Assembly: GCA_964187785.1 (NCBI GenBank)
Contig: OZ076409.1
Coordinates: 46,006,001-46,070,000 of the forward strand
DNA: 64,000 nucleotides
Origin: Amphiscolops sp. MND2022
Lineage: Eukaryota
Reading direction: 5' to 3'
Shown: positions 3,725 through 40,159 of the stretch, in pieces
Position numbering within the stretch: position 1 is the stretch's first letter
Layout of the letters: every line of letters starts with the position of its first letter
Translations under genes and position numbers: made by a program
Notes under the pieces: generated by a model
Told to the model about the DNA's origin: nothing
Database searches by the model: none
The model's input: only the letters and a program-made list of their open reading frames with translations

Positions 3725-3777
3725 AACAAAAAACAAAGAATCTGAAAAAAAACGAACATGAAAGAGACCAACGAAAA

Positions 3778-8918: not shown

Positions 8919-8972
8919 AACAAAAAACAAAGAATCTGAAAAAAAAACGAACATGAAAGAGACCAACGAAAA

Positions 8973-9165
8973 TGACGTCAACAAAACGGTGACAAAACCT
9001 AAAGTTGGCTAATTACCAACAAAATTGACGTCGCCATAACGTCGACAAAAAGGCTATTAGGGCTAGAACACTAATCCTGTAAGCTATAATGACGTCATCA
9101 AATCGGTGACAAAAATAAAAGCTAGTTAAAAGCTAGCGAAATTGACGTCAGCATAACGTTGACAA
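8973..9165. promoter_or_regulatory. CRE array, copy B
   Basis: Duplicate of 3778-3970. Confidence 0.55.
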
Positions 9166-9386
9166 ACTTGGTTAAGCGAGCTTCTCAATTCGCAGCCATA
9201 AAAACGCGACCTTGGCAAAACGCTAACTCCTGGGATTAAAAAAGGATTCAAATGATTGATTACCCAATCAGAATGGAGGGATTTATCCTAACATTTTTCT
9301 TAATCCTAACTAATCCTAAAGTAATTGTGAAACACTCAACAGTGCAAACAAGCAACTTGACAATCTACAACCGCTGCTACAAAAAA

Positions 9387-9692
9387 ATGAGCATTTACAA
9401 AGGAACATACGAATTGGTCGACATCTCATCGAGTGATGAAGAGAGGATCCTAGAAAGAGCCTCCACCCCCCTCCCGAGATGTGAGATTCCGAACTACCGC
9501 GTAGTGTTAGAAGTTCCCCATTCTCCCACTGAAGCCACAGTTGGAGATGAAGAATATTTCGACTTGTCGCTAGAGTCTCTGGAATCTGACTGCAGAAGAA
9601 TGAAATTAAATCTAAGCTACGAATCTATTGAATTTGAAGAATCTCCCGAAACAGAATTGGCATTAGAAAACTTGCGGGAAGGATATTCATAG
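9387..9692 (+). CDS. Small acidic protein, copy B
   Basis: Duplicate of 4192-4497 with two amino-acid changes (L>P, S>F). Confidence 0.4.
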   Translation: MSIYKGTYELVDISSSDEERILERASTPLPRCEIPNYRVVLEVPHSPTEATVGDEEYFDLSLESLESDCRRMKLNLSYESIEFEESPETELALENLREGYS

Positions 9693-11042: not shown

Positions 11043-11727
11043 GGAAGACCCCGAAAATGTACCAAATTTACCGAAAAAACCGTTCTTCGGAGCTGTTAAA
11101 ATGACGCTTTTTTAACAGCTTCTGAAATTGCCCAGACTTTACCAATTATGATCGCACCTTCTACGGTTCGCAAGATTTTGTGTAAATACAACCTGAAGGC
11201 AAAAGTTTACCACAAAAATCTTATCATTTCCCATTTTAATCGGGTGAACAGAATCCTTTTTTGCAGAACAAAATTATATGAAAAGTGGACTAAACTGGTG
11301 GGATGTCATTTTTTCTGACGAATCGATGATTGAATTACGACCTACTCGTCGGATACTTATCAGAAGACCACCTAATTTAGGTTTTCATCCGTTATTTACG
11401 CCAAAATTGAAAAAAGTGCCAGCAAAAAAAGGATCATCTGGGGATGTGCCAGCTCGAATGGTTAAAGGTTGATGACAAACACAAAGTCAACGCTGATGCT
11501 TTCTAAAAAAGACACCGATGTTTCTCAACACCGACTTTCTAAAAAACAAGGTTGTACCCTTTCGGAATCTCCAGGATAACGCACCGGCTCATACAGCAGA
11601 AAAAAACGATGGTTTTTTTTTCAAGAGAATGCCTTCACATACCTGGAAAACTGGCCCACTTTATGCATCTATTCCGATACGAAAACAAGAAATTTTGAAA
11701 TATAAAGGATACCCAACGAAATATTAG
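11043..11727 (+). pseudogene. Tc1 transposase pseudogene (copy B, internally deleted)
   Basis: GRPRK, STVRKIL, VIFSDES, QDNAPAH and LENWP are present; SPDLNPIE is deleted; typical Tc1 end SIPIRKQEILKYKGYPTKY*. Confidence 0.9.
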
Positions 11728-17850: not shown

Positions 17851-18934
17851 GTCGCAAACAGGAACAAGTATCGGTTGTGATATTTCAAACGTTGTTTCCA
17901 ATGTTTTTGCGACATTTTTTCCTTTCACTTGTCTTGACAGCAGTAAATTATGTGTGTCACCAGGTTTTCAGAACACTAGGGGCATTTTAGTTGAGACTAT
18001 TCCGTCGCTTTTTCGCTTTCAAACAACTGAGTTTCGTAAGTGTCGCTCGCGTATTTTCCAAAGGCCTCCTAAAACTATGAACGAAATCATTCTTCCATTG
18101 CGCTAGGCTGGACAATACAAACCAAACAAACTTGTGTATTGACAATGTCTGTTTCTGAAGCGGCCCAAGTGTGACGTTTTAGCTTTAAGGTATAAATATT
18201 AGTTTTCTCATGAAAATCAATTAATTTCTGTAAATAATGCATCAAAAGATCCGCCACTGAAACTACTAAAGTTAACCAAGCGAGAACGTTTAAAGTCGTT
18301 GCCACGCCTAATGCCTAAAAAAGCAAAGCTTTTGAGATATGATCAAACCAATTTCAAACAAATTCTCACAAAAATAATAGCGCTCAAAAGACACAAAATG
18401 AGTCCTCCCTACCCGAAACATTCCCCAACTGAACAGCACAGAAACCCTAGACAGAACTTATTTTTTGAAAACTGTTCCAATTTGCCAGAAAATTTGAAAG
18501 TGAGACCCTCCAAGTTCTTAGAACGTATAGCTATAAAAGGTCGTCCAAAAATTTAGAACCGACAATCAACGAATTGTTTCAGAAGATGTTCTGTTTTGTG
18601 CGGAACCATCAAAAACCACTCTAGCTTATTTTGTAGTGCTGCTTTATCCGAGAACAGCGTGATTGGGAAGAAAACGACATGACCGGTAATTTTCACAAGT
18701 TCATCAATTGGACAGCGCGTCAAGACAGCGCATTGAACATTGAGATTACAATCTTGGCCTAGAGCCAAGTAAACTGATATGTTTGATTGTGTTAAATTTT
18801 TACCTCCGATGCCTTGAATCGTGACGATACTCTCTCGACTTTCTGGATAAACCCACTGAGAACAGTCTTCCATTTTGAAGCTACTTTTTACTCCAGAATC
18901 AAGACAAGCGCGACAAATAAAACTTCCATCCTAC

Positions 18935-19663
18935 TGTAACGATAAGCGCTGGCGCTTGAACCGCAACGTAGAGTGGAGGAACTAGAACAGCGAATATAAT
19001 CTGGGACCTAGATCTCCGCGGCTCTAGCTCATTTTCCCTCCGAAGGAGCCCGTCCCAAAGTGGGGGAACCGCCTTGTAGGATACTCTCTGGCCTGGTCGT
19101 AGTCTGTAACTGCTAAAAGTAACAGGCATCTTGCAAGACTCAAGACCACTGCTCAACTAGCCTTTAAAAATCGGGCTGAAAATCGATGAAGGTTGAACCG
19201 TAATATTGGAGAATCTGATAAAATCGCCAAATTGGATAAACAGATGTTAAATAACAGCTCTCGAGCACATTAATTTGTCACATCGAAGAATACAACAAGA
19301 AATCAAGAGTTCAGAGTCATTTGATAGAAATTGACCTCAGCTTACCAGCGCTAGCGCTAGTTGCCACACAGGATACCGCAGGGATACTAAGGTGAACATC
19401 TGGAACACTGGTTTTCTCTACTGTAGTAATGGATATCTCCCAGAGATAGACACAATACCGTGTTCTGTATGCGTTGGGGACGTCTTTTTTGTCGTCTCCG
19501 GTGCTTGTTCGTCGCGAGCGGCGATTTCTGTTTTTTTGGCTTGCTTTTTCTGGCAGGTACTTCGTCTTGAGCATGTTTGAGTGCCACGTCAAATTTGAAC
19601 GAATTTTTGACAAAAATTCTAAACATGTCGGTTGATATTGCTGTACCAGAGCTTGCCGTTACA
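18935..19663 (-). repeat. 3' LTR
   Basis: TGTAACG...CGTTACA; ~25 substitutions relative to 36817-37545. Confidence 0.97.
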
Positions 19664-19672
19664 TCACTCCCC
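19664..19672 (-). promoter_or_regulatory. Polypurine tract
   Basis: Minus-strand GGGGAGTGA directly abuts the TGT of the 3' LTR. Confidence 0.75.
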
Positions 19673-20419
19673 AGGCTCCTGGCTTGTCGTCCCTGGCAAG
19701 CGGCGTCTGGCTCGTCCGGAAACTGCATCGCAGTGACTGCTGGGAACCATCATCCACACATCGGGGAACAAGGACGAGTCCTTGTTTTTCGGCAACAATT
19801 TCGGTCAGTTTTTGCGGTTTTTTCGAGAAAAAATACTTACTGCCTAGCTATTTGTACAAAACACGAACGGGGTTTTAGCACCAGCTCGAGAGCTAAAATT
19901 TTCAGCCGGTTGAAACTCGTTTGGGCAGCCAACTTACGTAAAACTTTTTTGCGACCAAAGTCGGCTAAAATTTCTTTTTCTTACCATTTGACACTTGTAG
20001 TCTTCAATTCACTTCTGGCGGTTAAAAACTTTTTTCAGAGCTTGCGGGCTCTTACGGTGAACAACCAAATTGATGAAGAACACTAGACTAGAAAGAAAAA
20101 TGCAATCAAGAGGGATAAAACTTCTTTTGATTGTGACAACTCAAAAACACCGCGAACGGTGCGCAACAAAAATAGCAGTTTTCTGAATAATAGTTTTTCT
20201 TTTCTTTCTGCTTGGTAGTTCAAGCCACTGGGGCAGGCGTACTCTATTGGCCGTACACCCAGTGCAACACTAATGGTACACTAATCATATAACCATAACT
20301 ATGAACAAAAATTGCACTTCGTATTGTAGCACCGTTCTGGATGAGAAGTTTTAAGGCACTGTTTTGTTGGCAGTTTTTGAGTGTCTAGGGAGCGCGAACG
20401 CTCCCGTTAGCGGCTGGGT

Positions 20420-23400
20420 TTATTGAGCCGAACTGCGTCGGGTCCGCTCTTTAGTGGTATCATCTGGAGTCTGTTCTGGGTTATCGGTCGACACTGACGC
20501 TCGACGTCGGGGAGAGACTTCTGTGGCAACCGTTTCAGAGTCCGACAGATCTTCGGGGAGCGACAACTCGGCAATGGGCTGCACTAGTGCTGCATTGGGA
20601 GTCAACTCAGCTGCGTGCTCTCCTGACTGCTGCTGCAAGGACTGAGGACTAGTTCGTGACGAAGACGGGCCAACTGGTTCTGGCTCCAAGTTGTGGGTTG
20701 GAAGGTTAATGGTGATCGGTTGAGAGATGGGCCGATCCAAAGACATCGCCATCGTCGGCGCGAGCATGGTAGGCGCGAACGCCTGTTGTCTCGCTATTTC
20801 TGATCTGCCTTCTACGGCTAATGCGACTCGGCGTGAGATCCACCCAGGTTGGCTCCAGAGCTCGCAAGCTCTCTTCCATTTAGGGAAGCTAGCAATCTCC
20901 AACTCCAGACAGTACTCTTCCCATCTTGCTCGTTCTGTCGAGCCCAACACGGAATTGATCTCATCATGCTGGACGATGGACATATCTCCAGACATGGTCA
21001 TCTTTCCTGTAGGCTTCCATGCCGACTTCCGGGGGAATGGGATAACGCGGGATTGGAGATTTCTTTGTCTGATCTGAGCAGCGCCTTCAATCCATCCTGG
21101 GATCTGGGCTGGTTCCAGGTGCTGGATCTGACGGTTGAAAATCTCAGGAGCGCGTCCAACGGGTTTCGCCCTTGGCCAACCTAACGGTTCCTTCCAATAG
21201 CGGTTTGGGAAGGCGATGCATTTAAAGCAGTACAAAGGGTCTACAGGTGGACCAGCACTAGTGCTGGCGCGAATCGCTTTTCTTATGAATTCCTGACTCC
21301 ACGGGAATCTGAAGGGGACTCCTTCCAAACTGAGAGGTGCGGAGTACCATTTCACAGGCCCATGTTCTCGAGGCAGAGGACATGCTTTCCTTGTGCGCGC
21401 GCGCAATAAACCCATCAGGTTCTCCTCCAGCTCTTTTTCAGACTTCAGGGTCGTATACCCATGCGGCACTTCACCACTCAGCACGGCATATATTACCCTT
21501 GGATATGCCAGTGAGGGACGGCCTCGCAGATAAGTGCTAAAGGAGACCATGTGTACTTGGACTGCTGTTGCTAATGGCTTGGTAGGGTATCGGCACACGC
21601 CCACTGCGCCAAAGATGGGGGCCAGGACGGGAGCCATGGCTGCCACGAAATCCTCTACCTCAGCCAGGGTGAGATCAGCGATCTGCTGCGGCAAGGGGAA
21701 TCCTGCCGTTTCTCGTGGGATTTGCTGGTCTGAGTTGTGTAGTGGCTGGGATTGGTCCACACCCACGAATAGACCGGAGGCAAACACCAGGGTGGAATAT
21801 AGCCAGTGCTGGATCGACGCACGCATGCGCTCCAGTTGGGCGGAACAATCTTGTTGGTCCTTTGAAGTCATTAAATGTCCCCAACGGGTCAGGCTGCGAA
21901 GTTGTCCTTGTGCCAGGACCAAGTAGCTGTAGAAAACGGTGAGGTCGCAGGCAATTACGATGTCGACTAGTAGGGCTAGTGGTCCGGCTACAAACTTCGT
22001 TGGACCCATCGCTAGCGCGAGCGCTAGTATTTCTCCGACAGTTGCCTCTCCAATGGTTTCTGGTAGCTTGTCCGTTTGCGTGGGGGTCAGCAAAAACTCG
22101 GAAGTTAGCACTTCAAGGTTCCATCCCAGACCAAGACTGGTACAGAAGGCTTCCAATGGACAATTGAGCTCTCGAGCTACTTCTGCTAGAGTCCTGGTGG
22201 CAAACCTAGTTTGATACCAATAGGCGTAAGTGGTAGCTGCGGCGTCGACCTCGGCCTTCGGATTGGTTGCTTCAATTGCCACGATGCATCGCAGTCCTAC
22301 GGACAGCTTCACGGGCTCGATTCCTGAGGCGAAGTGGATCTGTGGGATTGTCCTCTCAACGGTGCGCGCTGCAGGCCATGCACCGATTTGTTTTGTCAGC
22401 TCGGCTAACTCTGCACGCACTGGGATTTCTTTGTCCTTTCGCACTAGCCAATTGTAACGACGAACAGCCTCTCGTTCGGTCACATTTGACTCTCGGGCGA
22501 TACGATTGCCATCAAGGTCGAAGGCCATTCTGCCCATCCGCATTCCATGATCATAGAGGATAGCGTCGTCAATGGTTAGCTGGGCATTTCCCGAGCGTTC
22601 TATAGCAACGAGCGCTCTAGATATGGCGGCAAAGAAGGCTGGATACGATAAGGTATCTGGGCGCAGGTCCTCTCGGTCTACACGCAGGTTTGGTGCACAG
22701 ACAGCGAATTCAACTGCGCGCCTTGCATACCTCCAGCAGAATGTAGACGAACTGCTGCAGACTTCGTGGCAAGTACATAAATCCTGGCGGGGTTACAAAG
22801 ACTCCCAAACGACCCCGAAGGATCCCTGCGGCACGTTCCATTGCACCGACAACCTCATTTACTAGGGCTGCAATGTCTCCAGGCCGTCGGACCTCGGACA
22901 TTATGGCGTCTAGATCACGCAGCAACCCTTCGCAAGCCATGTGATCTAGAAGATTGGCAAAGATCACGCGCTGTGGGGGTGGCTCCTTCTGTGATCCTCT
23001 TAGGTTTGGATCGTATATGGCTCCAACCATCTCAGCGATCTCAGCGAAGCGAGACAGGGGCATAGTCAGTACCAGCACGTCAGGCATCAAGTTGTCAATA
23101 GGCAGATCACTCCGGCAGGTAGAATCAACTGCCATGCAGTAGCGCGCGCGCTGCAAAGCTGCTTTCAATAGGGGTTTCAGAGATCTCAAGTTGCGGGCGT
23201 AGCGGGCGTTCGCTTCCCATGTCTCACCTTCTCGCAACACATACCGTGCGGGGAAATGCTCGGTTATGTTATGTTGCAGGGGTGCCATGTAATCGTTAGT
23301 TGTCGTGGGCAGCTGCTCTCGAGCACGCTGTTCCCAAGCCTGCTCCGACATATCTGCGTCACGGGGGCGTAGCGAACGTGTGACCTGCGCCGGTACTGTG

Positions 23401-24460
23401 GTTCGATTGATTTCCTTTTGCTCCGTCTCAGTGGGAGGGGCTCTTTTCTTTATAGCGCATTGACTGGGGTAGAGATGCTCAGCGGCCATCCAAATGCGTT
23501 TGCTATCATTTGTGACTACTGAACCAGATACGTCATCAGATGGAGGGAGGAAGGCTGGAGGGCGGGCCTCCTCCACCGTCTCAGGTATCTCCAGGGACAT
23601 ATCTATTGGATTCGTGCCCGAGGGCACAAAGCTCACTTCCGAGCCTGCATCCGGATCTCCATACTGCTCGATTGCGTCCGCTAGAGACATCTGAGGCGCG
23701 CCTCGGCCTAGATGACCCACTCGGTACGGAGGCCTGGGGATGACTACACTTTTCAGCTGGGGTCGAGGTACATCAGCGCGCTTGTCGGGAGGGGGACGAC
23801 TAGTCGGGCTCTCGGGTACTGAACCAGCTGGGGTGACTGAGGCAGTTTCGTCGGTTAGTCGCTTTCTCCCGGCTTCTTCCCGTGTGCCAGTAGCAGCGCT
23901 TGCGCTGTTGCTTGGTCCAGCAGCAATTTCTACATCCATAGATGCTGTCTCGACTAAAGGAGCAGGCGGTCACAGCCCGAGGGCTGAACAGCAGCTTGCA
24001 GATAAGTGGCTAGTCCAGGGATTCACTGCTCTACGGCACGGACAAAATCGGAGGAGTTCGGATAGTTGGCCACTGCTTGTAATGCCACAATTACGGCCTG
24101 TTCGCTGGTACTCCTTCCAGTCAGCTCTGGGTTAGGTATGGGTGGCAACCGGGACCCCGAGGGCTCCCGATCAGAGACTGGTGCACTAGTAGTGGTTTGC
24201 AGTACCATGTGTGGCGCTCGGTAACCAGCTACTTCCGTCACCAGAGACACAGATACACCTGGCAGCGTCTGCATCGTGTCTAGTTGAGAGAGCAGGGCGG
24301 CCACGCCCGCTACCGCTAACGGTGAGAGGCCGTTCCTCAATCGTTCTTCTACATATTGGACTTGATTAGTCCTCTGCGCTCGCGCAGGCAATTCTTGAGA
24401 CCTATTGCTATGAGGTCCCGTCGTGGGAATAGGCACCGTGTTGTTGGGGTAAATAGCCAT
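20420..24460 (-). pseudogene. Extra ORF3 of the retrotransposon (~1350 codons if repaired), with an SGNH/GDSL-like domain
   Basis: ORFs 24023-24460, 22710-23939 and 20420-22543. After ...VCKAR a frameshift gives VEFAVCAPNLRVDREDLRPDTLSYPAFF...DHG, which runs in frame into the 707-aa ORF. The link to the 145-aa ORF needs one TGA plus one frameshift and is less certain. Confidence 0.75.
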
Positions 24461-24747
24461 TATATCATAGGTCTAAAAAGGATTACCGTTAGGCTTACCA
24501 GGTGCATTGTGGGGAGAGCTTAGGGCTCATCATCCAGTTACAATGGTACAAAGATGGCTCCATAAGGGAACCGCAACAAGTTTAAATTGTAGTTCAACTA
24601 ACTAACTAGAACATAAAGATAGGAGTTATTTAACGATACGTTACGAGGTAATCATTCCTTGGGATAGTTTAAGACTTCCTCCCAGACATAACAATTACCG
24701 GGGTGGATAAATTGAATAGGGGGTAACAGAAAAGAGTTTTGGGCAGG

Positions 24748-27036
24748 CTACTCCGGCCCTATGCTCAAAATGGACACGTACACGCGGTTATGCAGCACAA
24801 CGTGAATGCCAGTGCCCTCAAGCAAATTCGTTAGGGTATGGTACAGGTTTACCAGTGAGAGGGCGGGTCGCTCTGGATCCAGTATAGGTAGGTGGACCCT
24901 CGTGGATCCTTTCTCTATCAAACGCTGTATCAAGTGCGTCATACAACGTAGGTAATCCTCGGTGAGCAGCGGCGCACGCTGATTTGCTCTAATTATCAGT
25001 AAGTGAATACTCTGATTGGGGTTTGGGTTGATATCAGAGGGAATGGTGAGAATCTCTCCCACCTTGGGACGTAGGGAGAACACATTCTCCTTGCCACACT
25101 CCCGTAGCACGTACCGTAGGGCGGCTGAGTTGGTCTCTAGGTCAGCGGGACACGCTAACACCATATCACCTTCTACTTGTAGAAAATCAGTCACATCATA
25201 TGAGAGGTGCTCTGTTGGGGCTGGATACAGAACTCCCGGGTAGATAATTTCTCTTCCCGGCCCATTGTCGGCGGGTAAGCATACGCGGGGCGTGCGCCCC
25301 TGGATTGCAGCCAGGTCTTGCCACACCGAGCGTGGCATCGCTCGATTATCACTGCTCGCTTTGACCCATGTGTCCAGGGTGCTCAAAGCGGCTTTTGGGG
25401 GAAGCGGAATTTCGAATGTATGAGTCCACTCGTCCAGCAATCTAATGCGAGGATAATTGGTGAAACAAGTGATGATTAGTTCCAACCACCACGCGAACTT
25501 CACTTTGCCACGATACCAGTCTATAATGTGGAAGCAAAGTATCAAGTCCGCAGTAGTGAGGGTCCTCAGACCTTCCAAGCAGGACAGCAGGTGCAGTGGT
25601 TCCACTATTGCCTCCACTCGTGGAGCAGTAACCAGCAACCACCAGTGCGGTGATGGGCTGTATACTCCGCCCGGGTTCACGTGAATTCCGTATTTGTCAC
25701 AGAGAAGATCAGCGGTGATGCATCGGACCATTTGCACAGGTTCCCGCTCGAAGTTGAAGGGTCCAAACGCAATATTGCTGGGTACTGGGGGCATCACCGT
25801 AGCGAGGGTAAACTCTAGCCCTTTTCCGTCGCTAGTCCACTCCTTGAATCGAGGGCATGGAGCTTTTGCTACTCCAGGTGATGATAACTTCTCCAGAATA
25901 GTATCCAAGGGATAGTCTCCGCATCGTTCCAGGGAGGAATAAGTCTTTTCAGCTCTCACCGTAAGGCGATGCACTAGATTTTCCCCCCGTTCCGGAGGAA
26001 CTCCCCGGGCTCCAGTGGGAACCCTCCGGTTCTCATTGACGGCTAGCAAGCAGACACAGTCTCGCAGCCCACAGGTCCCGCATTTGTAGCGTGGCTGCCG
26101 CTTGCTTCTCAACTGGTATCGAGGGACTTCAGAAGCCTCGGTCGGCATTGTTGTTTCCGATGGCATTGTTGTTGTTATTTCCTTCTTCCTTGTTCTTGCC
26201 TTCGCTCTGACCAGCCGTTTTCGCGTTTTGGGTGGTCTCCCCCTCCCCCTTTTGAGAGAAGGAGCGGTCCCCGTTCCGGGCAATGTCGTGGGAAGAGTAG
26301 GCACATTGGACTGAGCGTCGTTATCCTCGGTGGGGGACTTCAGAGGGAGGGATGGAGCGGCCGGCCAATTGGGATAGTTATTGAGGAAACTAGTCAGTGA
26401 TGGATTTGTCAATAATGGGGCCCATGTTCCCAATAATGAGGGCTGTTTTTCGGGAGAGGATATTTGTGGTGACGGAGAGCGCGCGCGCTCATGGTCTGAG
26501 AATAGTTGAGGTAGATGATGGGTAGGTGATATTGATTGATCTGAAGGGGGGTGGGGGACTTCGAGCTCCCTACGATCAGCATCAACGGGATCAGGAGGTA
26601 CCGGCAACATGATTTCGGATAACTCATCGTCAGTGCCCGAGGTCGAGTAGTCGAACTGCTGGTAGTGCATGCGGGAACCTCCAGCACGCAACTTTGTGCG
26701 TAGACGGGTATCCATCCAATAGTGCTTGCGCGAAGGCAAGGATACGTCAGATGCTTCTGAAAGCAGTTGTTCAGTTTTATATGAAGGCTGAGACTTATCA
26801 TCGTCAACCACATCGATAGAACGTTCAGGGTCAGGGTCCATGAGTACCACTATTTCGCCGCTGTCCGCTTGCGCGGTGGCGAGCTCAAGGGGCCCACTGT
26901 GATGAGGTTTCAGGCGCTCAAAATGAACCTTTTGGCCTGTGTCCAACACGTAGACACGTCCTTCTTGGAAGACCTGTACTACTTTATGCGGGCCACACCA
27001 GGCACGCATCAGTTTGGGGGAGCCTTTTTGCGGCAC
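24748..27036 (-). pseudogene. Integrase C-terminal extension (GPY/F-like region, AT-hook, Cys cluster, two macrodomain-like units)
   Basis: In frame with the IN core across a single TAA at 27037. Motifs: WCGPHKV...VHFERLKP; KRGRGRPPK; CGTCGLRDCVC; OARD1-like C-terminus. Confidence 0.85.
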
Positions 27037-27910
27037 TTAGCGGCAAAAAACCCAGACAAGCTCTCCTGGCTGGTAGGCTCGTGCCCGAATAGCACGATCA
27101 TTTTTCAATTTTTGGCGTAGCTGGGCCTCGTGCGTATTGCACCGGACCAAGTCGTGAATTTCTTGTTGGCGAGCCAACACATGATCCACATACGCCTCAT
27201 GCGTATCAAAGGACTTGGCTGCAAATTCAGGGTACAAAAAGGTGAGGGGGATTGCTTTCTCAACACCTTTAGTCAACATGTAGGGCCAGAAGCCTGTAGT
27301 GGCGTGCCTGGTAGAATTATAGGCACCGATCACTTCATCTAAGCATTGGTCCCAGTCGCGCATGCGGCGCGAGCAAAAGACTCGCAATAAGGTTAGAAGG
27401 GTGCGGTTTTGCCGTTCCACCAAACCTTGAGTTCGTGGATGTCCGGCGGTGGAGGTCACTTTAGTGACGTGGGCTGCCTTTAAGAACTCATTAGAGACTT
27501 CAGCAGTAAGGTTGGGAGCATTGTCTGATTGCATGCGAGTGGGAGTGCCGTGGCGGGCAAACCATTTCTGCAGCAGCAATCGTGAGGTGGTCACTGCGTC
27601 ATAGTCGTGGTGACTACAAGGGACTGCCTCTGCGAATTTAGAGAAATGATCTATGATGACCAAAATGCCGGTGTTGTTATTATCAGAGGGGCAGATTTTT
27701 AAGTGGTCATACTGGACCAACTCGTTGAAGTAGCCACTCTGAATGTTTTTCAGTTGAAATCGTACGTCACCAGGCTTGTCACGTACTTGTTGGCAGGTGA
27801 GGCACTGGCCGACGTATCGACCGACACTGCGCCGGGCAAAGTGTGGCGCTCTTGAATTCGAGCTACCACTTTTGAGATACCTTGGTGTCCCATGGGGTCG
27901 TGCGCACGGA
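27037..27910 (-). pseudogene. Integrase zinc-binding and catalytic core
   Basis: HDPMGH...(frameshift)...CxxC; VQYDH, IIDHFSKF, SDNAPN, HPRTQGLVERQN (DDE). Confidence 0.95.
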
Positions 27911-29246
27911 ACAGAATCTCATGCTGGTACAGCTGAGGCATTATGATCATGCACGGACGTTCGTGCAATGGGCGTTGGGTGGGTGAGTATTGCACGCAAA
28001 GGACATCATTCTTGTTTATGAACAAGAGGTCCTTTTTCTGGCGAAAATAGTTACGTGCGAATTCACGCACGTTCTCTGGAAACACGTCGTTATCTAGGGA
28101 CTCACACTGCACGAGCTTTTTCAGTGCTAGCACATGGACGTCGCGGTTTTGGGCTAGGACCAAATCCTTGATCCCATGTACGGTATGAGTGTGTTCATGG
28201 AGCTCGGTGTCAATGTCCTTGAGGACCATGATTGACTCGCGCACGCCACAAGGAAAATCCTGAAGCGTGGCGTTATTCGTTCCCGCCACAGAATAGATAG
28301 TGCGAGAGGGGACATTTACTGCATGCGTTGGCAGCAGGTAATCCTCGCTCGCCTCGGTGGTGACGTCTATCCAGTCTTCAGGATAGTCTGGGTAGAAGTC
28401 CTCATGCTTTTGCAGCACGGGTGGAGGCTTGGGCGGTAGAGGTGCGGCTAGCGCCTTTGCCTGTCGTTCTCGCTTATTCGCTCGTTGCACACGGCGAAGC
28501 ACACGAAGTGCTTGGTCAGGAGCCTTAGGTTCCAAGTTCTGCAGATGTGGTGGTAGGTCAGGATGATTTGGAAATATTCGACCTTGCAGGTCGAACCAGG
28601 GAGCTACGGGGAGGTTGTCGAATTCCTCGGCCGAGAGGAAATTCCAACGCTCTCCTGTAGCTGGCAGCTGCGCAAGCTGCTTTTCTCGGCATCGATAATC
28701 GTTGGTTCGTTTGCTCAAGCCATCAGCATTGCGGTGTTGAGTTCGCGGTCTGTGTTCCACACGAAAGTGATACCTGTCCAGCGTCATGATCCAACGTCCA
28801 ATCAATGCTTGGTCTGTGGAGTAGGTTTTCAACCAGGATAGGGCTTGATTATCGACTCTCAGGGTGAACTTTCGGGGGCAAAGGTAGCTGTGGTATATCA
28901 GGATGAAGTAGTAGGCTGCAAACATTTCCAACTTGGGTGCCCCATATTTGGCTTGCGTGGTGGTTAATTTCTTGCTGCCGTATAAGATCGGTCGCAGGCG
29001 TCGCTCTCCTGGAGCTCCTTGCCACTGGTGTAGAATGCCGGAAATGGCAACGGCGCTGGCATCGGTGTCCAGCACAAACTCTCCTTCGGAATCAGGCTGC
29101 GCGAGCGCAGTCGCCTCGATCAATGCTTTCTTGATCTCGTTGAAGGCCTTTTGCTGGTCAGGGCCCCATGCAAACGTGGCATTCAGTCCAGTAACGGCGT
29201 GGAGGGGCGCAACCAGCTTGGCATGCCATGGGATAAATTCACGATA
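27911..29246 (-). pseudogene. RT connection, RNase H and linker
   Basis: FVLDTDASAVAISGILHQ, KLEMFA, FTLRVDNQALSWL, HRNADGLS. Confidence 0.95.
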
Positions 29247-30060
29247 TTAATTAGCGAATCCCAAAAAACTTTGCATCTCTGTCTTGTTGCGAGGGATGTC
29301 CCAGTCGCGCAGTTTGGCAACAGCCTTCGGGTCCGGCTTGACACCTTCTGCGGAGACTACGCGTCCCAGATATTTGATTTCTGATTTCATGAAGTCGCAT
29401 TTGGCTACGCGCATCTTGAAGCTAGCCTCGCGGAGGCATTCAAAGACCTCGCGCAGACGCGCCATGTGATCTTCCACAGTTTCCGTTGCTATGACCATGT
29501 CGTCGATGTATGCCATGACCATGCTGCCTTTGCGATTAACTATTTTTTGTAGCGCTCGCGCTATTTCTCGCTGGAAGGTGGCTGATGCATTGCACAAGCC
29601 GAATGGCATTCTCCGCCTTTCGAAGAGTCCCAACTCACAGGCAAAAGCTGTCTTGTGGCGGTCCGCCTTTCGCAAAGGAATTTGCCAGAAGGCCCAGGCA
29701 AGATCTATGCTAGTGTAGATCTTTGCATTGCCCAGTCACGCCAGGCTTTCGTCGATGCGGTGCAGGGGGTAGGCATCCTTAATGGTTACTTCGTTCAGCG
29801 GTCAGAAGTCACAGCAAAAACGCAACTCCCCGCTTTTCTTTTTTACCATTACGATACCACTTGCCCAAGGGGACAGTGAGGGTTGTATCATCCCTAAGGC
29901 CAGTAGGCTCCGAACCTCCTGGTTGGCTCGTTCAGCCTTTTCGGGGACATTCTGCGAGCACCTTCACGGTGCGGTACAGCCCCAGGCTCTACCTCTATCG
30001 TGTGTTTAGCAATGGTACAGCGGCCAATATCCGCCTTACGCTTCATGAATAGGTCATCAA
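29247..30060 (-). pseudogene. Reverse transcriptase (Gypsy type), with in-frame stops and a frameshift
   Basis: SPWASGIVMVKKK, RFCCDF*PLN, DLAWAFWQI, KTAF, MPFGLCNASATFQ, YIDD, YLG, FLGFAN*. Stops at ~29803, ~29737 and ~29248. Confidence 0.97.
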
Positions 30061-31110
30061 ACTCGTTAAGAATGTTGTCCAAGGACTCGCAGGCGCTAGC
30101 GCCCCAGAGTTTCTTAACTTCTTGCAATTGAGAATCGGGCCCAAGGATCGGGGCCAATAGGTCCGGATCGGTGCGCTTACGAATCTCGCGCTCCGAAAGC
30201 CCCGCTTCACTTGGATCCGTCGAAGACAAAAACTCAAATTCAGATGAAGAAGTCAACTCAGAAGCAGTGGATAGATTCATTTCACTGTACACTTTATAAA
30301 CAAAATTTGCTCGACTGTTGTCGGCTTCAGTTTTGTGGTCAGTTTCTGCAGTAGCATCCAGATTTTGGGGCACAGCCTGGTATACTAAAGACACAGGCAC
30401 TACCGTGCCCAGGTGGGCACCACATCGTACACGCTGCTGGTTGCTGGTGAGGTTTATCAGACTCACATACAATGTTCCTGTCTCACTGACAGTGGCCACG
30501 CTGTCCTCTAAAAAGATGGTATTTTGCAATGAGGGGTCAGACAACGAGGCGTTAAGCGCCACGGTCTGGAAAACTAGTGGTTCAAGCGCGTCGGTGACAA
30601 GTTTAGCCTTTGCCACTGTACGCTCGAAAGGCTGTAGGACCAGGTCACTGTCCAGAGCAATGGGAGTAGTTAGCGAAGCATCACCTACCTGGGTGTGTGC
30701 ATGATGCCAGACGGGCTTCACTGGTGCTCGCACCACTATCTTCATGGAGGTTAGGTCTACCAGGACTTGGTAGGAACAGAGGAAGTTTCGACCCAGCAGA
30801 AAGTCCTCCACACCCATTGCGTCATCTACCACGACAAAATTGGTTTCGAGTTCGTACCCTCCCAACTGGAAGCGTACCTGCTCAGCCAACCCGAAAGTCT
30901 TTATTGTCTTCCCCTTGGCAGCGTACAAATCAGATTGATAGGGTTTCAGGACCGCACCGGTCCTTGCAGCTACCCGGTTAAAGGCGGAGAAGGTTAGTAT
31001 GGACACCCCGGAACCAGTATCCACCAAGCCTCGCAGTGGGATAGGTGCCGCATGGGGCACCACAAAGGAGACAACAAGCGACGCACGCTCATCTATCCGC
31101 GCTTCCCCGG
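30061..31110 (-). pseudogene. Aspartic protease plus a degenerate dUTPase-like beta domain
   Basis: GLVDTGSGVSIL...FLLGRNFL; followed by LVLQPFERTV...VSLINLTSNQQRVRCGAHLGTVVPV. Confidence 0.9.
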
Positions 31111-34100
31111 TGGGTTCTTGTAGTTAATATTATAGCATTTCAGCTCTTGAGGTCCCAAGCATAAGCCGGGTGGGAATACATCTACCACCACACAGGCCTC
31201 GAATTTCACGTCTACGCCGTCCATCGTTGCACAGACTGGTACCGGCGAGTATGTAGTTAGGGTCTCTGACTCTCCAGGGACGTACCATTGCTTTGGGCGG
31301 GGCAACTCCATCCGGTTATAGAGGACAGATAGCTCAACCCAGAGTTTCGCCAAGGTTAGCGTTGGTCTACGCACCTGCTCGGCTGCCAGCATCAGATGAA
31401 TCGAGATCAACGTTCTCCCCTGTGGATCGAACGTGGTGGGCTCCAAGCACGTTTGGATCTGCTTTGTTCCGCATGTAACTATCAGTCGGGGATGAAACGC
31501 TGGAGGTTCCGCCGGGTGCAGCATTAACACGCGATCATCCTCCAGGGGTACAGTGTGGGCGGCCACACCAGCGGATTCCACCTCGGCCCATCGATTGTAG
31601 GCCAATTCATCATTAGGCCATGGAGCTTGAGAATGCTCACCGCAGGGGACATCCACATGGTCATAGACTCCACAGTGCGCACACTGATGAATGCCTGGAT
31701 AATTCTCCAACACGCCATCAGTTACGTCTTCAGCAGTGACTTTCACGCCTTCTGGCTCGGGAGCTGCTACTGGTTTGCGAGCCTGATCGCGGGTGGGACA
31801 GTCCCGGGCAAAATGCCCAGCTTGACCGCAATTGAAGCATGCGCCAACGGGTAGGCGTGCCGCAGGCTGCGCTGCTGCCTGATTTGGTGGGGCAATGCTC
31901 GCAGGTGGGGGAGGCATTACTCCTTGTGGTAACACCATTTTGTTGGGGGGTAGTGGCGCAAAGGGATGAGGTCTAGACCTCATTGCTAGTCTGGGGTCAT
32001 AGGGTTGAGGGAATTGGTTGGTTTTTGGACGATTGCGCTGCAATTGGCGGGTGGTGAAGCGAAGGGATTCCACCGTAGGTGGTTCGGTCAGGAAGACTTC
32101 CGAGGCATACACTATAGCAAGCTCCCGCCTCAGCGCTGGGTCTCGTACGCCTTCCATGAAGCGCTGAAGGATTTCGTAGCGCTTGGTAGTGATTGCCTCT
32201 TGCGGGAATCCTTGACTTCTAAGACCCTCTAGAGCGTCTAAATACTGCATCCAGTCTTCTTTCTCATGTTGAATGCGGCTCTGAAAGGCTTGTCGTACCC
32301 GCATACGATTTCTTCCAGCGCCAAAGCGGCTAGATAACAATTCAAACACCTTCTCGGGGGTGTCGCGTTCGGATTCTGCTTTGTTAATGATGTAGTTGCG
32401 AGCCTCACCCTCAAGGTGACCAATAATGCTCCAGGCATGGTCCTCGGCTGAGACCTTGGTTTGCGTTCTCTTCAGATATCTCTGCATAATAAGGATCCAC
32501 CCATCAATGGATCCGTCTTTGGAGCCGCGATACACATTGGGTCTCGCCTGAGCCAAGTCTCTACCGGCGAGTAAAGGCGCTAACTCTTTTGACTTCGCCT
32601 TTGATATGGCGGCCGTGAATCTCAGCTGCTCGGGGGATATGGCTTCTCCTTCTTCGATCTTAGCTTCCCCCTCACGCGTCCTGTCATGGATACCAAGAGT
32701 GGCTTGCATTGACAGGTCAGCGATTTCGTCCTTCTTGCGAGTGCTGCTGGCACAGGGAGTGCCCGAGGGCAGTCCATGATCGGCTGACAAGTCTGCGGTC
32801 AAACATAAGGAGTCTGGTCCTGACATCGAAATAGGGGCAGTTGCAAACGTTGCTCCCTCGGTTTGAGAACCTAGGGTTGCCTTGGTATTGGATAAGTCGA
32901 CTTCAACCGAAGAATCAAGGTAGATTATTGACATCGGGTCCACGCCTTGATCGCGAGTAGTGCCCTGGGCTGCAGAGGGCATTGATGACTCTGCTGAGTC
33001 GTGATGTCCGCTCATCTGCACTCGTGCAGGCTTGCGCTCTGCATCAGGCGTGGTTATCACCAAATTTCCGGCTGCTCCTTCATCTTTCCGGGGCGCAGGC
33101 ACCGTCGGTCTGGAAGCGCTAGGCTTCAACGCACTTGGCAGTTCCGGTTTCACTACTTGGCTCGAGTACGTCGGCTCCGAGACACGGACTGGATCTCCAT
33201 TCCGCACACCTCCACTGGCACTGGGCTGCCGCGGGAGTGACCTCTCACGCCTCATGACATCAATGGCATTGAGTACTGTGTGCATCTGATTGCTTAAGTC
33301 GTTGATCTGCGTTTCCACGCGCAACTCGCGAGCCATCAACATGTCATTCATCTCTCCCATCCGGTGACCCAATGTGTCCACTCGAGCATTTTGCACGTTC
33401 TGCGCGGTACGCAATTGATCACTGACTTGCAGAACCTCACGCATCGTCGTCTGCATCACTTTAATATTTTCCACGATGGCAAGATGTTGCTCATTGCACT
33501 CAGCACGAGTGCTGGCCAGACCTGCTAGAGCCCGCTGGGTTTCGGCTCGGGCATCTAATAGCGCTGCCTTGTACACCGAGGACCGTTGCGATGAGGCCAA
33601 TGAACCTGTCATACTCCTAACACGGGATGTCTCCTGACGAGGTTCGCCTGCATGCAGTTTGGGTGGTGGCACCTTCTTGTGCTTTCCGTAGGCACAGATC
33701 CGAGTAGGTCCTCGAGTGGTCCCGAGTCCTCGCGGTCTCGCGTAACTCATGCCTCCCACATAAGTGGGTCCTGCTCCATGTCGGTCTGTGAGCCGAGTTG
33801 TGCCTCTCCAGCCGGGGGTGCGCGCGAGCACCCTTCCTCAGCCACCAATTCATCGGTTGCATTCGAATTGGGCCAGCCCTCCTCCACTTCATTGGTTCTA
33901 TCGCGGCAGGTTTCGTCGACCCACTGCTCGGTTCGACGCGAATTCTCGGAAACACTTGAATTCTCGGAGGGAGGAACCATAGCGGCCAACTCCTCTTTTC
34001 GCTGTTGTTCGATAGTGACTTCATCAGACATGTCGTCTGAAAAACGCGAACCATCTATCGTGACCCACGATTGTGAACAAGTATGGGGCACCGCCATCAG

Positions 34101-34112
34101 TTCGGTGGCCAA
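31093..34112 (-). pseudogene. Gag (coiled coil, capsid-like region, CCHC knuckle) plus a degenerate protease-like module
   Basis: 912-aa ORF with IDGWILIMQRY...HLEGEARNYI...FQSRIQHEKEDWMQYLDAL (capsid-like) and CFNCGQAGHFARDC at ~31798-31839. The upstream 33747-34112 ORF is probably its broken N-terminus. Confidence 0.9.
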
Positions 34113-36783
34113 CGCGTTTTATTAATAGCGATCGAGTTACCGCTCACGATTACTCGGAAGACTCAAATTGGGTCGCCGATCGCACTAGGGTCTTCAATTC
34201 GAGGCTGATCCCTTGGTCGTCCCGGTGAGCACTTAAGAAATTTAATGCTACTCAATGTCCTAGATTTTTCGAAACACGTTCTAGAGCTCGTAGGCTGTTC
34301 AAATTTGCACAGCGTTTTCCCACAAGCACACTGGGCCAGAAAATCAACCTGGTTTACGACAAAAAGTCTCCAGTCACTCACAGGAAGAATTTCAAAGAAT
34401 TTTAGGATTTTCCAAAATTCGCACGACAACACTCAAGAGGCTCGTGTGTGCGTTAGAAGCGCTGTATCAAGCCCAAAATTGACCAGCAGATCTTAGGTGC
34501 ACGTAGATTTACAAAAATGAACACAGTTTTGAGCTGCGCCCCTTCTACACAGTTTCACCTAGGTACAGACGTGCGGTACCACTATGTACCGAAATACACT
34601 GTTTTTCACGTCTTTTTCAAGAATGCGGTCCACTGGAAAGAGCTAGCAAGCTCAAATTCTCTGCAGCAACGTAAGAACTAGCACAAGTTACGATGGTGGG
34701 CTACAATATAGCCCCACCCGTCGGCCAGGGTGCCCGGGTTACTTGGAAAAATTAAGAAAAAACTGCCTTTTTGCGCACTTTTTTGGGTGCCACGTTTTTC
34801 CTATTTTCTCAACAAGTATCACACAGTTCGGCACCAAACTTGACAGTTTATGCCAGTGGGCACCTACAATGCCACTGATATGGTCGAATTGAAGCGCGAG
34901 CGCTTATTTGAGGTTTCGACCTACTATGTACGTTGTACACGAAAAAACACTGTTTTGGACTACTTTTTTCACAAATTGACCAAGAGGATCACCTCAGAAA
35001 GTGATACGGCGGGCAAAATGGGACCAACGTGTTGCCCCACTATCCGTAGCACTGGGATAAACCCTCAATTGGTTGTGCCCGTTAGGTATAAGGCACTGAT
35101 AGTCCGGCAGTTTTGGACTTTTTCGGTCCTTTTATGCTTTTCTGAAGTCGAAACGTCAGAGAGCTTTTCTCGACTTTGGTGAGCGATACGCTCACCAAAT
35201 TTTTGGTACTAACGTTAATTTTTGTGGTGGTTACGAAAATGCAATCACTTATTGGCTAGGGTTCGGGAATCGATGACTCGACCCTAGCTTAGAGGCAGTC
35301 CGGTTTTGTGGAAAATTGATCAAATTCAGTGCGTTTTTCCACTTTTCTCAGCACTGAATGGGAGTTTTTACACGCGGTTTTCACCACCACGCGTTATTTT
35401 TACTATAAAAACAGAAGATGAGAGCGCGCGGGCTCCCAGGTCTCGAAAACACTGAGTGCCCCAGGGGTCTTGATGATGCACTCTGGCACTCCTGAAACTG
35501 GCCAAAAATCAAGGTTTTTCAACTTTTCTCTACACTGAAAAGGAGTTTTTACACGCGGTTTTCCCCACGATGCGTTGTCTTTGCTGCTAAAATCGAAAAA
35601 GAGAGCGCTCAAGCCCGCTCTCTTCGAATAAGCTTCGCTCTGGGTATTTTTGGTTAATGCACTTTCTCTGTTCGAAAATGCCAAAAATCCTAAGTTTTTC
35701 GCACTGTATCAGCACCAGGCTGCCTGAGTCCGCTACAAAAGTTGCAATTAGTATCCTGAGGGTCAACTACACTTGGGGCAATACCGTACACTGCCGTTTT
35801 GCACTTCCATACTCGTGTACGTTCACATTTTAGGTGCCTTTTTGGCCAAATTTCCACTTTTTCCACATTTTTCGGCGTCAAATTGGCACTTTTATCACAA
35901 TCAAAGGCTTCAACTTCAACTTTCGTGCCTCGTGCCGGCTTTCTCGAGCCTTGCAGCTGCTTTTTCAAAACTTTCCACCAAGCTTTCCTGGGTGCTTTGA
36001 GCACTAGTGCTCGAAACCAAGAAAAACACCAAAAAAACGCAAAAATGAGGTTTTTTCTCCAAGTGCTATCTTTTTCACAGAAAAGCACTTCGTAGGGTGT
36101 CGTTACATTTATGGTAGAACGTCACTGACCTGCACCAACAATTCTCCATCGAAAGAGGTGTATTTTCAAAATTTTTGCCAACCATACTCCATCTGAGCGA
36201 CACATCTGGTCATAGGGGGTGCATCTTCACCACGTTATTTCTCCACATCTAGACCAGACAGAAACACGCGGGTGGGACCATTAGCACCGTCTGTCGTTGC
36301 ACTTGCTGTCCACCAAAAACCATGCCTCTAGGACGTCTCCACGAGAAATGGGAATAGGAAGTAGGCAACACGAGGTTTGTCCCCTCCTTCGCCTCGCTGG
36401 AATATGGTCGACCATCCATCCGTTACCCTCTTGCATGACATAAAATGGCTGAAAATAGCTCAAAAAACCTGTTAGACACCCGTAGCCACGTGCTACGGTC
36501 CTCTGCGCCTGCAAAAAGGTACCCGCTGATGGGTACACAACACATCACACATAAAGAGCGATTTCCTTCTAAAATGCCCAAAAATACCATTTTCACACCT
36601 GAAAACACGTTTTCTTCGGCATTTTCTCTGGTTCAACGCCTCTCCCAGTTCCAGTAAGACGTAATACGACTAAAAAAGGTAAAATTCTGCTTCTCTCTCC
36701 TGTCCAGAGTCGAAAACGGGCTTGGCGCTGATCACCAGGGGGCCAGATCTTTTAAAAACTGCTAGGGAAAGCTTCCCAAGACG

Positions 36784-36801
36784 ATCCCTCTGTGGTCGCC
36801 A
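36784..36801 (-). promoter_or_regulatory. Primer-binding site, tRNA-Arg-like
   Basis: Minus-strand TGGCGACCACAGAGGGAT is complementary to a tRNA 3' end ...UCCCUCUGUGGUCG-CCA, which resembles animal tRNA-Arg(UCG). Confidence 0.75.
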
Positions 36802-36816
36802 AAAAATGAGTTTCTA

Positions 36817-37545
36817 TGTAACGATAAGCGCTGGCGCTTGAACCGCAACGTAGAGTGGAGGAACTAGAACAGCGAATATAATCTGGGACCTAGATCTCCG
36901 CTGCTCTAGCTCATTTTCCCTCCGAAGGAGCCAGTCCCAAAGTGGGGGAACCGCCTTGTAGGATACTCTCTGGCCTGGTCCTAGTCTGTAACTGCTAAAA
37001 GTAACAGGCATCTTGCAAGACTCAAGACCACTGCTCAACTAGCCTTTAAGAATTGGGCTGAAAATCGATGAAGGTTGAACCGTAATATTGGAGAATCTGA
37101 TAAAATCGCCAAATTGGATAAACAGATGATAAATAACAGCTCTCGAGCACATTAATTTATCACATCGAGGAATACAACAAGAAATCTAGAGTTCAGAGTC
37201 ATTTGATAGAACTTGACCTCAGCTTCCCAGCAATAGCGCTAGTTGCCACACAGGATACCGCAGGGATACTCAGGCGAACATCTGGAACACTGGTTTTCTC
37301 TACTGTAGTAATGGATATCTCACAGAGATAGACACAATACCGTGTTCTGTATGCGTTGAGGACGTCTTTTTTGTCGTTTCCGGTGCTTGTTGGTCGCGAG
37401 CGGCGATTTCTGCTTTTTTGGGGTGCTTTTTCTGGCAGGTACTTCGTATTGAGCATGTTTGAGTGGCACGTCAAATTTGAACGAATTTTTGACAAAATTT
37501 CTAAACATGTCGGTTGATATTGCTGTACCAGAGCTTGCCGTTACA
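36817..37545 (-). repeat. 5' LTR
   Basis: TGTAACG...CGTTACA; 729 bp. Confidence 0.97.
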
Positions 37546-40159
37546 TACCATTCAAGAGATGCACGAAAGCTGTAGCAAGAATTCTTTGACTATTTGATTA
37601 GCGTAACTGAAAACTTTGAGAAAATTGATCAACCAATATGATTACTGCGGTTGACTCATCATGAATGAAAGAACGATGTCGAAGCATGTCGCTGTTTCGG
37701 CTTTAATGAACTTGCTACTGACAATTGAAAACAAAAAATATTTGTTTCGACGAACTCCTTCATTTTGACGATTGTTGAAGCAAGGAACTTTTGACCAGCG
37801 TAGAAATTGTGCGTATGCTTACAGACCGGAAATCTTTCTTGCTCTGTTACATGAGCAACGAGCAACATTTGCGCTTTGGGCGTCTGATTTTTCAAAAAAG
37901 CAGCTTCAATACCGTTGCTCTATTTTCAACCAACGTTTTTAAAGCGCTATGAGACAAAAAAAAAACCGTGCCTGAGTTTTCGGAGGCGTGTTGCTCCCAA
38001 ATTTTTTCAGCTACTGCATCAAAGCGTTCCGTGACTACGTAAATTGGAATAAACGATCAAAAATGGGCGCGGACGCTGCACTGTTGAAGATAGGGATTAC
38101 ATTTGTCCGCTGTTTTGATTATCTTCCTCGATACCGTAACGGTTTTTGCTTTTGACTGCGTTAAAACTAACAATAGAAAGGAAATGTTCGCGAACAATGA
38201 GAATTTTCTTCTCCTAACGCTTCCGCAAAAGATTCAGCGTGACACTGTACTTTGTCTTTGTGATCGTCAGCGAACTTCGACAAGGTTCTTCTTTCGCAGA
38301 TCTTTTTGGGTACTGTAGGATTTTTTATCTGTTGTTTGAATCGACAGAGGCCTTATGAAAATCAATGATCGAAATCCATTTATTTTAGCATCCGGAAAAA
38401 CAAAGCATTTTGAGTTTCGATATTTTGATGTTCTTTGTTGACAAAATAGAGTCTTTAAAAGAAAAACTTGATCACCAAATTATCACTTTTCCTCGAGTTT
38501 AGGCTGTGCGTTGTGAAAAAAACTTTCGGCGACATCGATATAACGTCAAACCTTCTGTAGTAGGTCAATTCTTGCCCGATGTTCACATTCAACATTCGGT
38601 GTTATCACTTCAATTTGAATGCTTGTCAAAGCGAGCGCAAGAAGTTCTTGTGAAGATGTCGCTTCGACTTGATCGAAGGTTACGCCATTTACCGATCTTG
38701 GGACATGTGCAAAAGATGATTAAAAAAGTAGTCAACGTAATTGCACGAAACGTTTGTGTTAACAAAAAAGCAGAACCAGGAGTGCTGCAATCTCCTGTGA
38801 TTCGAAAAAATGAGTTAAAATTTTGTTTCAAACAAAATACACACAACAAAAGCATCATGACTCGTTGAATAGAAACCTATTTTCAGCGATTTTTTGCGCG
38901 CAAAGGTTTCACACTAGCTAAAATAGTCTTAGTACATTAGAATCTTGGCCACAGCTACGCTCGTTGCTGATGTGCTCATTTAACCTGCTCAAAGAAAACC
39001 AAACACTAGAACCATTCGCTGCATTCCATATCTTGTTGAAAGTTATGGATTCGCATGAACCCGTGAGTGAACGGTGTTCCTCCAATGTTTCCAGTGAATT
39101 CTATGCTCTTGTCTTAGAATCGCAAGCGAAAGTGGGGTGGTCACAGAGTCTTAATCGAGCCAATACTGGTGCTTGATTTGCTTTCAGAAGGTTCACTATT
39201 CCATTAGAAATAAGTGAGAGTTCTGTGTGGATTCTTGATTTCCGATTCCGACTAAGGAAGTTGGCAGCATCATAGAGCTTCAAAGAAGCATATCTTTCTG
39301 CTCTGAAAAATTAGGCCGTTTCGCAACTTTGGATTAAAACTGATAGTGACATCTTGACAATTTCGAAAAAAAGGCGCTTCACAATTATGCATATTGAAGA
39401 TGAAGAACTCAAAACTGGAAGTGACTTCACAGAAATAGACAATGATATTTCTAAAATTTTAGGGGCAGAACAAAGAGAATTATTTTTTAGTAGGAAATCG
39501 TTGATGGTTGAAAACTTTGTCAAAGTTTCGAGAGTTTCAGGAATGCATTCTGTTAGTTTTTTCTTCAGCTGTGAGCTTCGCATTGGCGATTGTATCAGCC
39601 ACTTGACTGACAGCCATGTTGATATTTCAAAGTTCTTTTCTGTCGACCATGTTGCTCCATGGAAGATCATCATGACAAAATGGCCATTGTGATTCATCAA
39701 AGTTCACTGTGTTACAAAAAATTTGAAGGATTTTTTCTCGAATTGAGATTGTTATGCTGGTTATTAGGATAATCGAAAGTTTTACGTTTGAAACTGTTTT
39801 AGTTAATTTTAAAAGTTCTTATATTTCAAAATCAAAACTTCTGAACAACCCTAATAAATGCGTTGCAACCATCGTATATTAAAAACGTGTTGCTCGTTTT
39901 CCAATGCTGAATTTTTGTTATTTTGATTTTAAAGTTTTAACAGCAATGTTCTATTTGGAAAAAAATCACAAGAACTTGTCCAGTCGACAATTTCTGATCT
40001 TCATAACTTTTTTTTCCAAACAGCTTGTCTTGGAAGCAAGTTTTCAAGATTTTCAATGTTGAGACGGTTCCATGCTTTCAAACCCGACTTTTTCTCTTTA
40101 GTAACATAAACAACCAGTATCTGCCACATCCAATTAAAAATCTTCAATAACAACACGAA

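Follow-up and report, generated by a model that had tools for sequence, protein, structure and literature searches.

We analyzed a 64,000-bp stretch of contig OZ076409.1 of Amphiscolops sp. MND2022 (hereafter the window), which contains a long terminal repeat (LTR) element on the minus strand at positions 18935-37545, spanning 18,611 bp. Its 5' LTR (36817..37545) and 3' LTR (18935..19663) are 729 bp each, carry TG..CA ends and are 96.5% identical, with 25 differing sites and a Kimura two-parameter distance of 0.035. Between the LTRs, and like all features of the element given below on the minus strand, lie a 2.7-kb leader (34119..36783), a Gag-Pol reading region of ~3120 codons (24748..34118) and a third open reading frame (ORF3; 20420..24460) of ~1347 codons. 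The element belongs to Ty3/Gypsy: Pfam matches followed the Gypsy order, namely zf-CCHC, PNMA (weak), aspartyl protease (below the cut-off), RVT_1, RT_RNaseH, Integrase_H2C2 and rve, and the best solved match of its reverse transcriptase (RT) was the Ty3 RT (E 2.9e-64). Because both coding regions contain frameshifts and stops, with Gag-Pol split across four frames by several stops and ORF3 broken at further places, the copy in the window is defective. The Ty3/Gypsy family to which it belongs, with elements of 15-19 kb, is very abundant, and each query returned ~2000-3500 first-look candidates across the 1.07-Gb genome.

An LTR search of this genome yielded 1956 first-look candidates, from which 40 were scored and 10 LTR pairs were fetched. 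All ten sister copies were colinear with the window element at 93-98% identity, and all ten carried an extra 250 bp at 24219-24223, within ORF3, that the window copy lacks. Thus, the extra ORFs belong to the element and are not nested insertions absent from its sisters, the finding that the original prediction had said would overturn it. The dimensions in that prediction (18.6 kb in total, a 2.7-kb leader, a Gag-Pol region of ~3100 codons and a third ORF of ~1350 codons) agreed with our measurements. In particular, one sister (L006) held a single 1745-aa frame from gag to RNase H, another (L007) a 1003-aa frame covering the integrase core plus its tail, and subfamily D contained natural open Gag-Pol frames of ~3000-3220 codons, which confirmed that Gag-Pol is one frame. 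The copies fell into subfamilies A1 (including the window), A2, B, C (decayed) and D; RT-RNase H identity to A1 was 93% for A2, 86% for B, ~73% for D and 57% for family E, which was present in the protein collection and was not found in this genome, where the best identity was 55%. Among the sisters L008 and L010, one copy shared an LTR with an upstream element in tandem, and the other contained a 223-bp internal inversion in the macrodomain region described below.

The family was distinguished by a target-site duplication (TSD) of 3 bp, a feature that, together with the spacing of its primer-binding site, was absent from the original prediction. In the window, the two copies of the TSD lie at 37546..37548 (upstream) and 18932..18934 (downstream). 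Among the best-scoring matches, a non-random sample, the four subfamilies that could be scored together showed a 3-bp TSD in 42 of 44 paired copies: the window and 9 of 9 scorable sisters in A1 (10/10), 10/11 in A2, 8/8 in B and 14/15 in D. Subfamily C copies, D1, L008, L055/L067 and two pairs of the control family were unscorable, and three of four rows marked "solo?", which resembled mistyped ends of full elements, were excluded from the 44. When flanks were shuffled, matches averaged 1.1 with a maximum of 7, compared with 17/21 observed. An unrelated LTR family of the same genome, used as a control, had a 5-bp TSD in seven of eight scorable copies. Moreover, the flank profile, built from 52 left and 62 right ends, was palindromic about the middle base (A in 62% at -6, T in 65% at +6, ~85% A/T at the center), so that the target is a weak palindrome, A-N-N-[N-W-N]-N-N-T; symmetry centered on a single base fits an odd stagger. 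Weighing against a strict 3-bp duplication are the two exceptions (one of 2 bp and one of 4 bp), one A2 site within an A-run that is compatible with 4 bp as well, the non-random sampling, and the one control copy with a 3-bp TSD. Even with these, we regard the 3-bp TSD of the family as practically certain. Retroviral integrases are described as duplicating 4-6 bp (PMC11054761); in the Drosophila survey, the tabulated Gypsy families with 8 or more insertions all have a modal TSD of 4 bp (PMC3276498, Table 3), well-sampled LTR families have 4-5 bp, and one Copia family is given 3 bp from a single insertion (PMC3276498). No Gypsy family with a 3-bp TSD was found in the literature searched, which excluded Repbase, GyDB and most subscription papers.

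The second unusual feature concerns the ends of the element. The primer-binding site (PBS; 36784..36801), complementary to the 3' end of host tRNA-Arg(TCG) genes, is separated from the 5' LTR by a 15-nt spacer (36802..36816); the offset after the CA of the LTR was 15 nt in A and 16 nt in B and D, compared with 2 nt in the control family. Standard reverse transcription would place such a spacer at the end of the cDNA. As the 3' LTRs nevertheless stop at CA, we infer that a flap of 15-16 nt is removed, the integrase being the simplest candidate for this step. A short polypurine tract (19667..19672) lies 3 nt from the 3' LTR. As separate observations, the PBS of subfamily D differs from that of A and B, and the genes for the primer tRNA of the window's family form a tRNA-Arg array at C9:57.54-57.58 Mb with ~173-bp spacing; the tRNA-Arg pattern gave 256 matches genome-wide, nearly all of those listed falling within this array, whose anticodon calls were TCG, CCG and one TCA.

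Within Gag-Pol, we recognized a capsid-like region (32113..32511; weak PNMA match, E 0.0016), a CCHC zinc knuckle (31795..31842), an aspartyl protease with a DTG motif (approximately 30720..31080), the RT (29250..29945), RNase H (28770..29168) and the integrase zinc finger and DDE core (27436..27940). A beta-rich domain after the protease (30375..30660), which was delineated by alignment, may resemble dUTPase. A doubled protease fold had been claimed for this region. The downstream, DTG-bearing protease stood; the extra unit upstream of it, PR1 (~125 aa, approximately 31120..31500), is at most a putative degenerate protease, as its C-terminal half alone matched the DTG protease (profile P 0.03) and it has no D-T/S-G motif, with 86% conservation between A1 and A2 and a region alignable with family E and with the metagenome relative L151. 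The integrase core of A-D carries a 2-residue insertion and reads SDNA at a site that is SDNG, SDQG or DRG in E, L151 and five database proteins; by analogy with retroviral integrases, both positions presumably lie near the target DNA.

After the integrase core, the tail consists of a linker, an AT-hook-like GRGRPP motif in a basic stretch (approximately 26220..26255), a CxxC-x4-CxC cysteine cluster (26050..26082; each Cys in 42-43 of 44 rows) and ~400 structured residues. Both the GRPP motif and the cysteine cluster, which the original prediction had named, were kept across subfamilies. Sequence searches of the tail against Pfam and PDB gave no significant match. The remainder is described from an AlphaFold model of window 24751-26100, which had a mean predicted local distance difference test score (pLDDT) of 71. 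Residues 297-439 of the model matched TARG1 (Foldseek E 5.6e-7), and structural alignment of this unit (unit 2; 24781..25221) with TARG1 gave Z 16.0 with a root-mean-square deviation (rmsd) of 2.6 over 135 aligned residues; TARG1 was also top in the wide search. Unit 2 is thus predicted to be a macrodomain of the TARG1/ALC1 class. The region preceding it (unit 1; 25381..25785), a putative degenerate macrodomain, was confidently modeled and was spanned by PARP14 tandem-macro rows (106-443, Z 11.6, rmsd 17.6). Of the tandem macrodomain-like units previously proposed, the second was firm in fold and the first remained tentative, and we consider the tail macrodomain probably doubled. The metagenome relative L151 has a single canonical TARG1-like domain in the corresponding position after the integrase (E 1.4e-22), which a further relative, L158, matched at 62%. 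TARG1 is described as acting through Lys84 with residue 125 and as stripping ADP-ribose from nucleic-acid ends (PMC7050489). This dyad and the glycine-rich loops are present in L151 and absent from unit 2 of A-D, where, in an alignment made via L151, Arg takes the place of the Lys, DPER that of the Asp loop and NSAAL that of GAGIA. TARG1-like domains have reportedly been annotated in some insect Gypsy polyproteins.

ORF3 encodes 1426-1456 aa in full-length homologues (~1430 aa in the sisters). Searches of its sequence against Pfam and PDB gave no significant match. Against 1.84 billion proteins, its profile obtained 675 matches, and all 150 of those listed aligned to family members; a genome search returned many long open ORF3 frames within the top 150 matches, homologues were present in other assemblies, and one 1187-aa relative was 27% identical. 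In a structural model of 657 aa (mean pLDDT 74.5), residues 19-260 aligned with PAF-acetylhydrolase (Z 11.2, rmsd 3.7, 181 aligned), which was also first in the wide search. In support of the SGNH-like ORF3 claimed before, ORF3 is thus predicted to hold an SGNH fold, approximately at 22590..23300. The helical part (model residues 260-657), examined only within the whole model, gave no fold match. In the sequence searches of the tail and ORF3, a capsid match (8eaw, E 0.009) disappeared with a deeper profile. With residues assigned by motif position and not from coordinates, the nucleophile Ser78 was kept in 41/47 rows and N-x-x-D-H was nearly invariant (N134 45/46, D137 45/46, H138 41/46), but the block-V His position was Arg in 41/46, and the full catalytic S, G, N, H set in four blocks was not found in ORF3.

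The ratio of nonsynonymous to synonymous substitution rates (dN/dS), by which the original prediction had proposed to check the accessory ORFs, was low between A1 and A2: 0.03-0.04 for both macrodomain units and 0.06 for the SGNH region, with 0.01 for RT; these ratios are rough because dS is near saturation (proportion of synonymous differences about 0.55-0.8). Judged from the values of 0.03-0.06, the macrodomain units and the SGNH region appear to be under purifying selection despite missing canonical catalytic residues. Copies of subfamily D (L106-L117, L131-L138) measured 19.2 kb with ORF3 and 14.8-15.1 kb without it, and the young ORF3-less copies had LTRs 99.4-100% identical. Because such relatives exist, ORF3 is accessory and dispensable in cis.

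To place the family, we built a FastTree phylogeny of 55 RT-RNase H sequences, comprising 21 proteins and the 34 loci with enough coverage among 81 with matches; its references were database hits and did not include GyDB or Repbase sequences. A metagenome scan contributed 80 loci, and the viral contig collection yielded no relative. Subfamilies A-D formed one clade (support 1.0). Family E and the majority of the nearest metagenome loci joined them with support of 0.75-0.96, and the database proteins from vertebrates, arachnids, algae and fungi lay outside this grouping; the RT-RNase H region was 35-43% identical to named database proteins. L151 has an SGNH-like ORF3 and no recognisable LTR pair, and an extra 509-codon frame follows its ORF3-like region (L151:17269-18795) without a good Pfam match. 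A distinct lineage with its own chromatin-targeting or host-interaction machinery had been suggested; the tree upheld the lineage, but the machinery did not gain support, given that the folds are without canonical catalytic residues and that ORF3-less relatives exist.

Taken together, we proposed, at a probability of roughly 60%, that this is a recently active Gypsy lineage with a 3-bp integrase stagger and long-overhang trimming, in which the TARG1-like tail and the SGNH-like ORF3 serve as non-catalytic binding modules. The single Gag-Pol frame would likely be cleaved by the DTG protease, and host tRNA-Arg would prime reverse transcription at the PBS. The cDNA end would then carry the 15-16-nt spacer, and the integrase would nick at CA|T, drop the long flap and cut the two target strands 3 bp apart. 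This short stagger may be due to the 2-residue insertion and the Gly-to-Ala change beside the second catalytic Asp; this is a lead from a correlation, as TSDs were read only in copies carrying both. The tail probably began as an ADP-ribose eraser directed against host marks; after duplication, it would have degenerated into a tether that acts together with the AT-hook. A branch-point and splice-acceptor-like signal lies just 5' of ORF3 (approximately 24470..24500). ORF3 is probably made from a spliced RNA, and its product would aid particle assembly or trafficking. We tentatively extended this proposal, as a possible but rather doubtful reading, to a Gypsy clade of marine animals, not described before, whose integrase would have a geometry new for LTR elements, combining a 3-bp stagger with 3' processing of 15-16 nt instead of ~2. 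In this clade, a TARG1-type eraser would have been captured as an anti-defence enzyme, staying intact in the outer branches and becoming a doubled dead tether here, and an Oskar-like dead SGNH protein would carry the element's RNA to the germ line. The Oskar OSK domain, reportedly a catalytically dead, RNA-binding SGNH fold, resembled ORF3 in fold (5a4a, Z 7.8), a score within the background range, and thus serves as an analogy only.

Several points weigh against this view of the modules. The Foldseek E-values of ORF3 are weak (best 0.087), the profile match of unit 1 is marginal (P 0.03; score 18.2 compared with a shuffled maximum of 17.9), and, since Ser78 and the near-invariant N-x-x-D-H are retained, ORF3 may still be catalytic. 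The modules could instead be active enzymes with rewired sites, ORF3 being an esterase that works through Ser78 and the N-x-x-D-H motif, and the tail removing ADP-ribose to counteract host defence. Strong purifying selection would suit such enzymes, the bdelloid GDSL ORF3s are reported to retain their catalytic residues (PMC5408684), and TARG1 acts on ADP-ribosylated nucleic-acid ends (PMC7050489); the Arg at the block-V His position and the three replacements in unit 2 make this reading unlikely in our view. For the ends of the element, steps outside the integrase could be responsible, either trimming of the cDNA end by RNase H or an exonuclease, or host repair that removes one base of a 4-bp stagger. 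The 4-bp TSD of one D copy would agree with this, as would the short polypurine tract, which suggests that end formation may be unusual, but the 5-bp TSDs of the control family in the same genome and the flank symmetry about one central base, as expected of an odd stagger, render it rather improbable.

ORF3 might also substitute for env in particle exit or entry. It stands at the env position, downstream of the splice-acceptor-like signal, and its homologues have one or two hydrophobic peaks of 1.6-1.96; however, a hydropathy scan of five homologues revealed neither a signal peptide nor a strong membrane anchor nor a conserved furin site, a BFVD structure search gave no viral fusion fold and no match at E<=0.001, and copies lacking ORF3 have spread, so that we gave this explanation little weight. 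A reading of the extra ORFs as nested insertions, or as passengers that have decayed, could be argued from the broken window copy and the short D copies, but the colinear sisters, the many long open ORF3 frames, the homologues in other assemblies and the low dN/dS leave it almost no room, and we consider it ruled out by the sister colinearity and the low dN/dS.

Compared with known systems, the lineage shares with Ty3/Gypsy (Metaviridae) the TG..CA LTRs, a tRNA PBS, the order of protease, RT, RNase H and integrase, the Ty3 RT as best solved match and a palindromic AT-rich target, but differs in the 3-bp TSD, as opposed to the typical 4-6 bp, and in the PBS 15-16 nt from the LTR. An SGNH/GDSL ORF3 is known from LTR elements in Vesta of bdelloid rotifers, where it likewise follows pol in the place of env and is reported to have been gained and lost within the lineage (PMC5408684). 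The GDSL protein of Vesta retains the catalytic residues, whereas here the fold lies inside a ~1430-aa protein without the block-V His, and the accessible text on Vesta contains no mention of a macrodomain (PMC5408684). Burro/GYPSM1 of planarians and plant Ogre are likewise described as Gypsy elements of great length, present in many copies and encoding long polyproteins with additional domains; Burro differs in its size (>30 kb), its BIR, MATH and ankyrin domains and its env homology, and the accessible text of that review has neither "macro" nor "TSD" and sets a bar of 20 kb for "giant", below which the window lineage falls (PMC6431247). Because SGNH ORF3s (PMC5408684) and larger Gypsy elements (PMC6431247) are already published, the element is not an undescribed kind of system, contrary to the earlier suggestion. 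The tail resembles TARG1/OARD1 (ALC1-class) in fold (Z 16), with the Lys/Asp dyad and glycine loops kept in L151, but in A-D it is fused to the integrase, probably doubled, and has the dyad and loops replaced. A reader-type module at the integrase C-terminus is also reported for chromoviruses (10.1101/2021.11.30.470311); however, no Pfam Chromo match was found here, and the lineage lay apart from chromodomain-bearing proteins in the tree. From env-bearing errantivirus-like elements it differs in ORF3, for which the hydropathy scan of five homologues showed no signal peptide, furin site or membrane anchor. The literature searched contained no description of this lineage or of a Gypsy macrodomain tail, and we think it unlikely that the family is already catalogued in Repbase or GyDB.

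A 3-bp stagger across a whole family, combined with a long overhang at the ends, would, if true, extend the range of geometries known for integration complexes, and the lineage would provide a natural comparison for what sets the stagger. LTR finders whose settings, often the defaults, demand a TSD of 4 bp or more or a PBS near the LTR would miss or mis-trim these elements. The presence of an intact TARG1-like domain on the integrases of relatives suggests that hosts use ADP-ribosylation to defend themselves against retrotransposons.

Further observations concern the leader and the surroundings of the element. The leader, although non-coding, was 86% identical in DNA between A1 and A2, higher than the 80% of RT, and included a 690-nt block 75% identical to subfamily B and a 95-bp direct repeat, without an Rfam match at E<=0.1; its conservation reflects either constraint or recombination. 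The element was inserted in an older fragment with a protease motif (window 18553-18930 and from 37549 on), which had no Pfam match and which we take to be BEL/Pao-like; relatives of this fragment carry LTRs of ~1.1 kb, are flanked by 5-bp TSDs and have their PBS 2 nt away from the LTR. Elsewhere in the window, a strongly A-skewed 5.19-kb unit is tandemly duplicated at 1062-11443 (99.3% identical), a 2660-codon open frame on the minus strand (53388-61367) encodes an acidic, Pro/Thr-rich product with 210-bp and 144-bp coding repeats and no Pfam match, and a degenerate array of 38-bp tandem repeats lies at 63108-63791.

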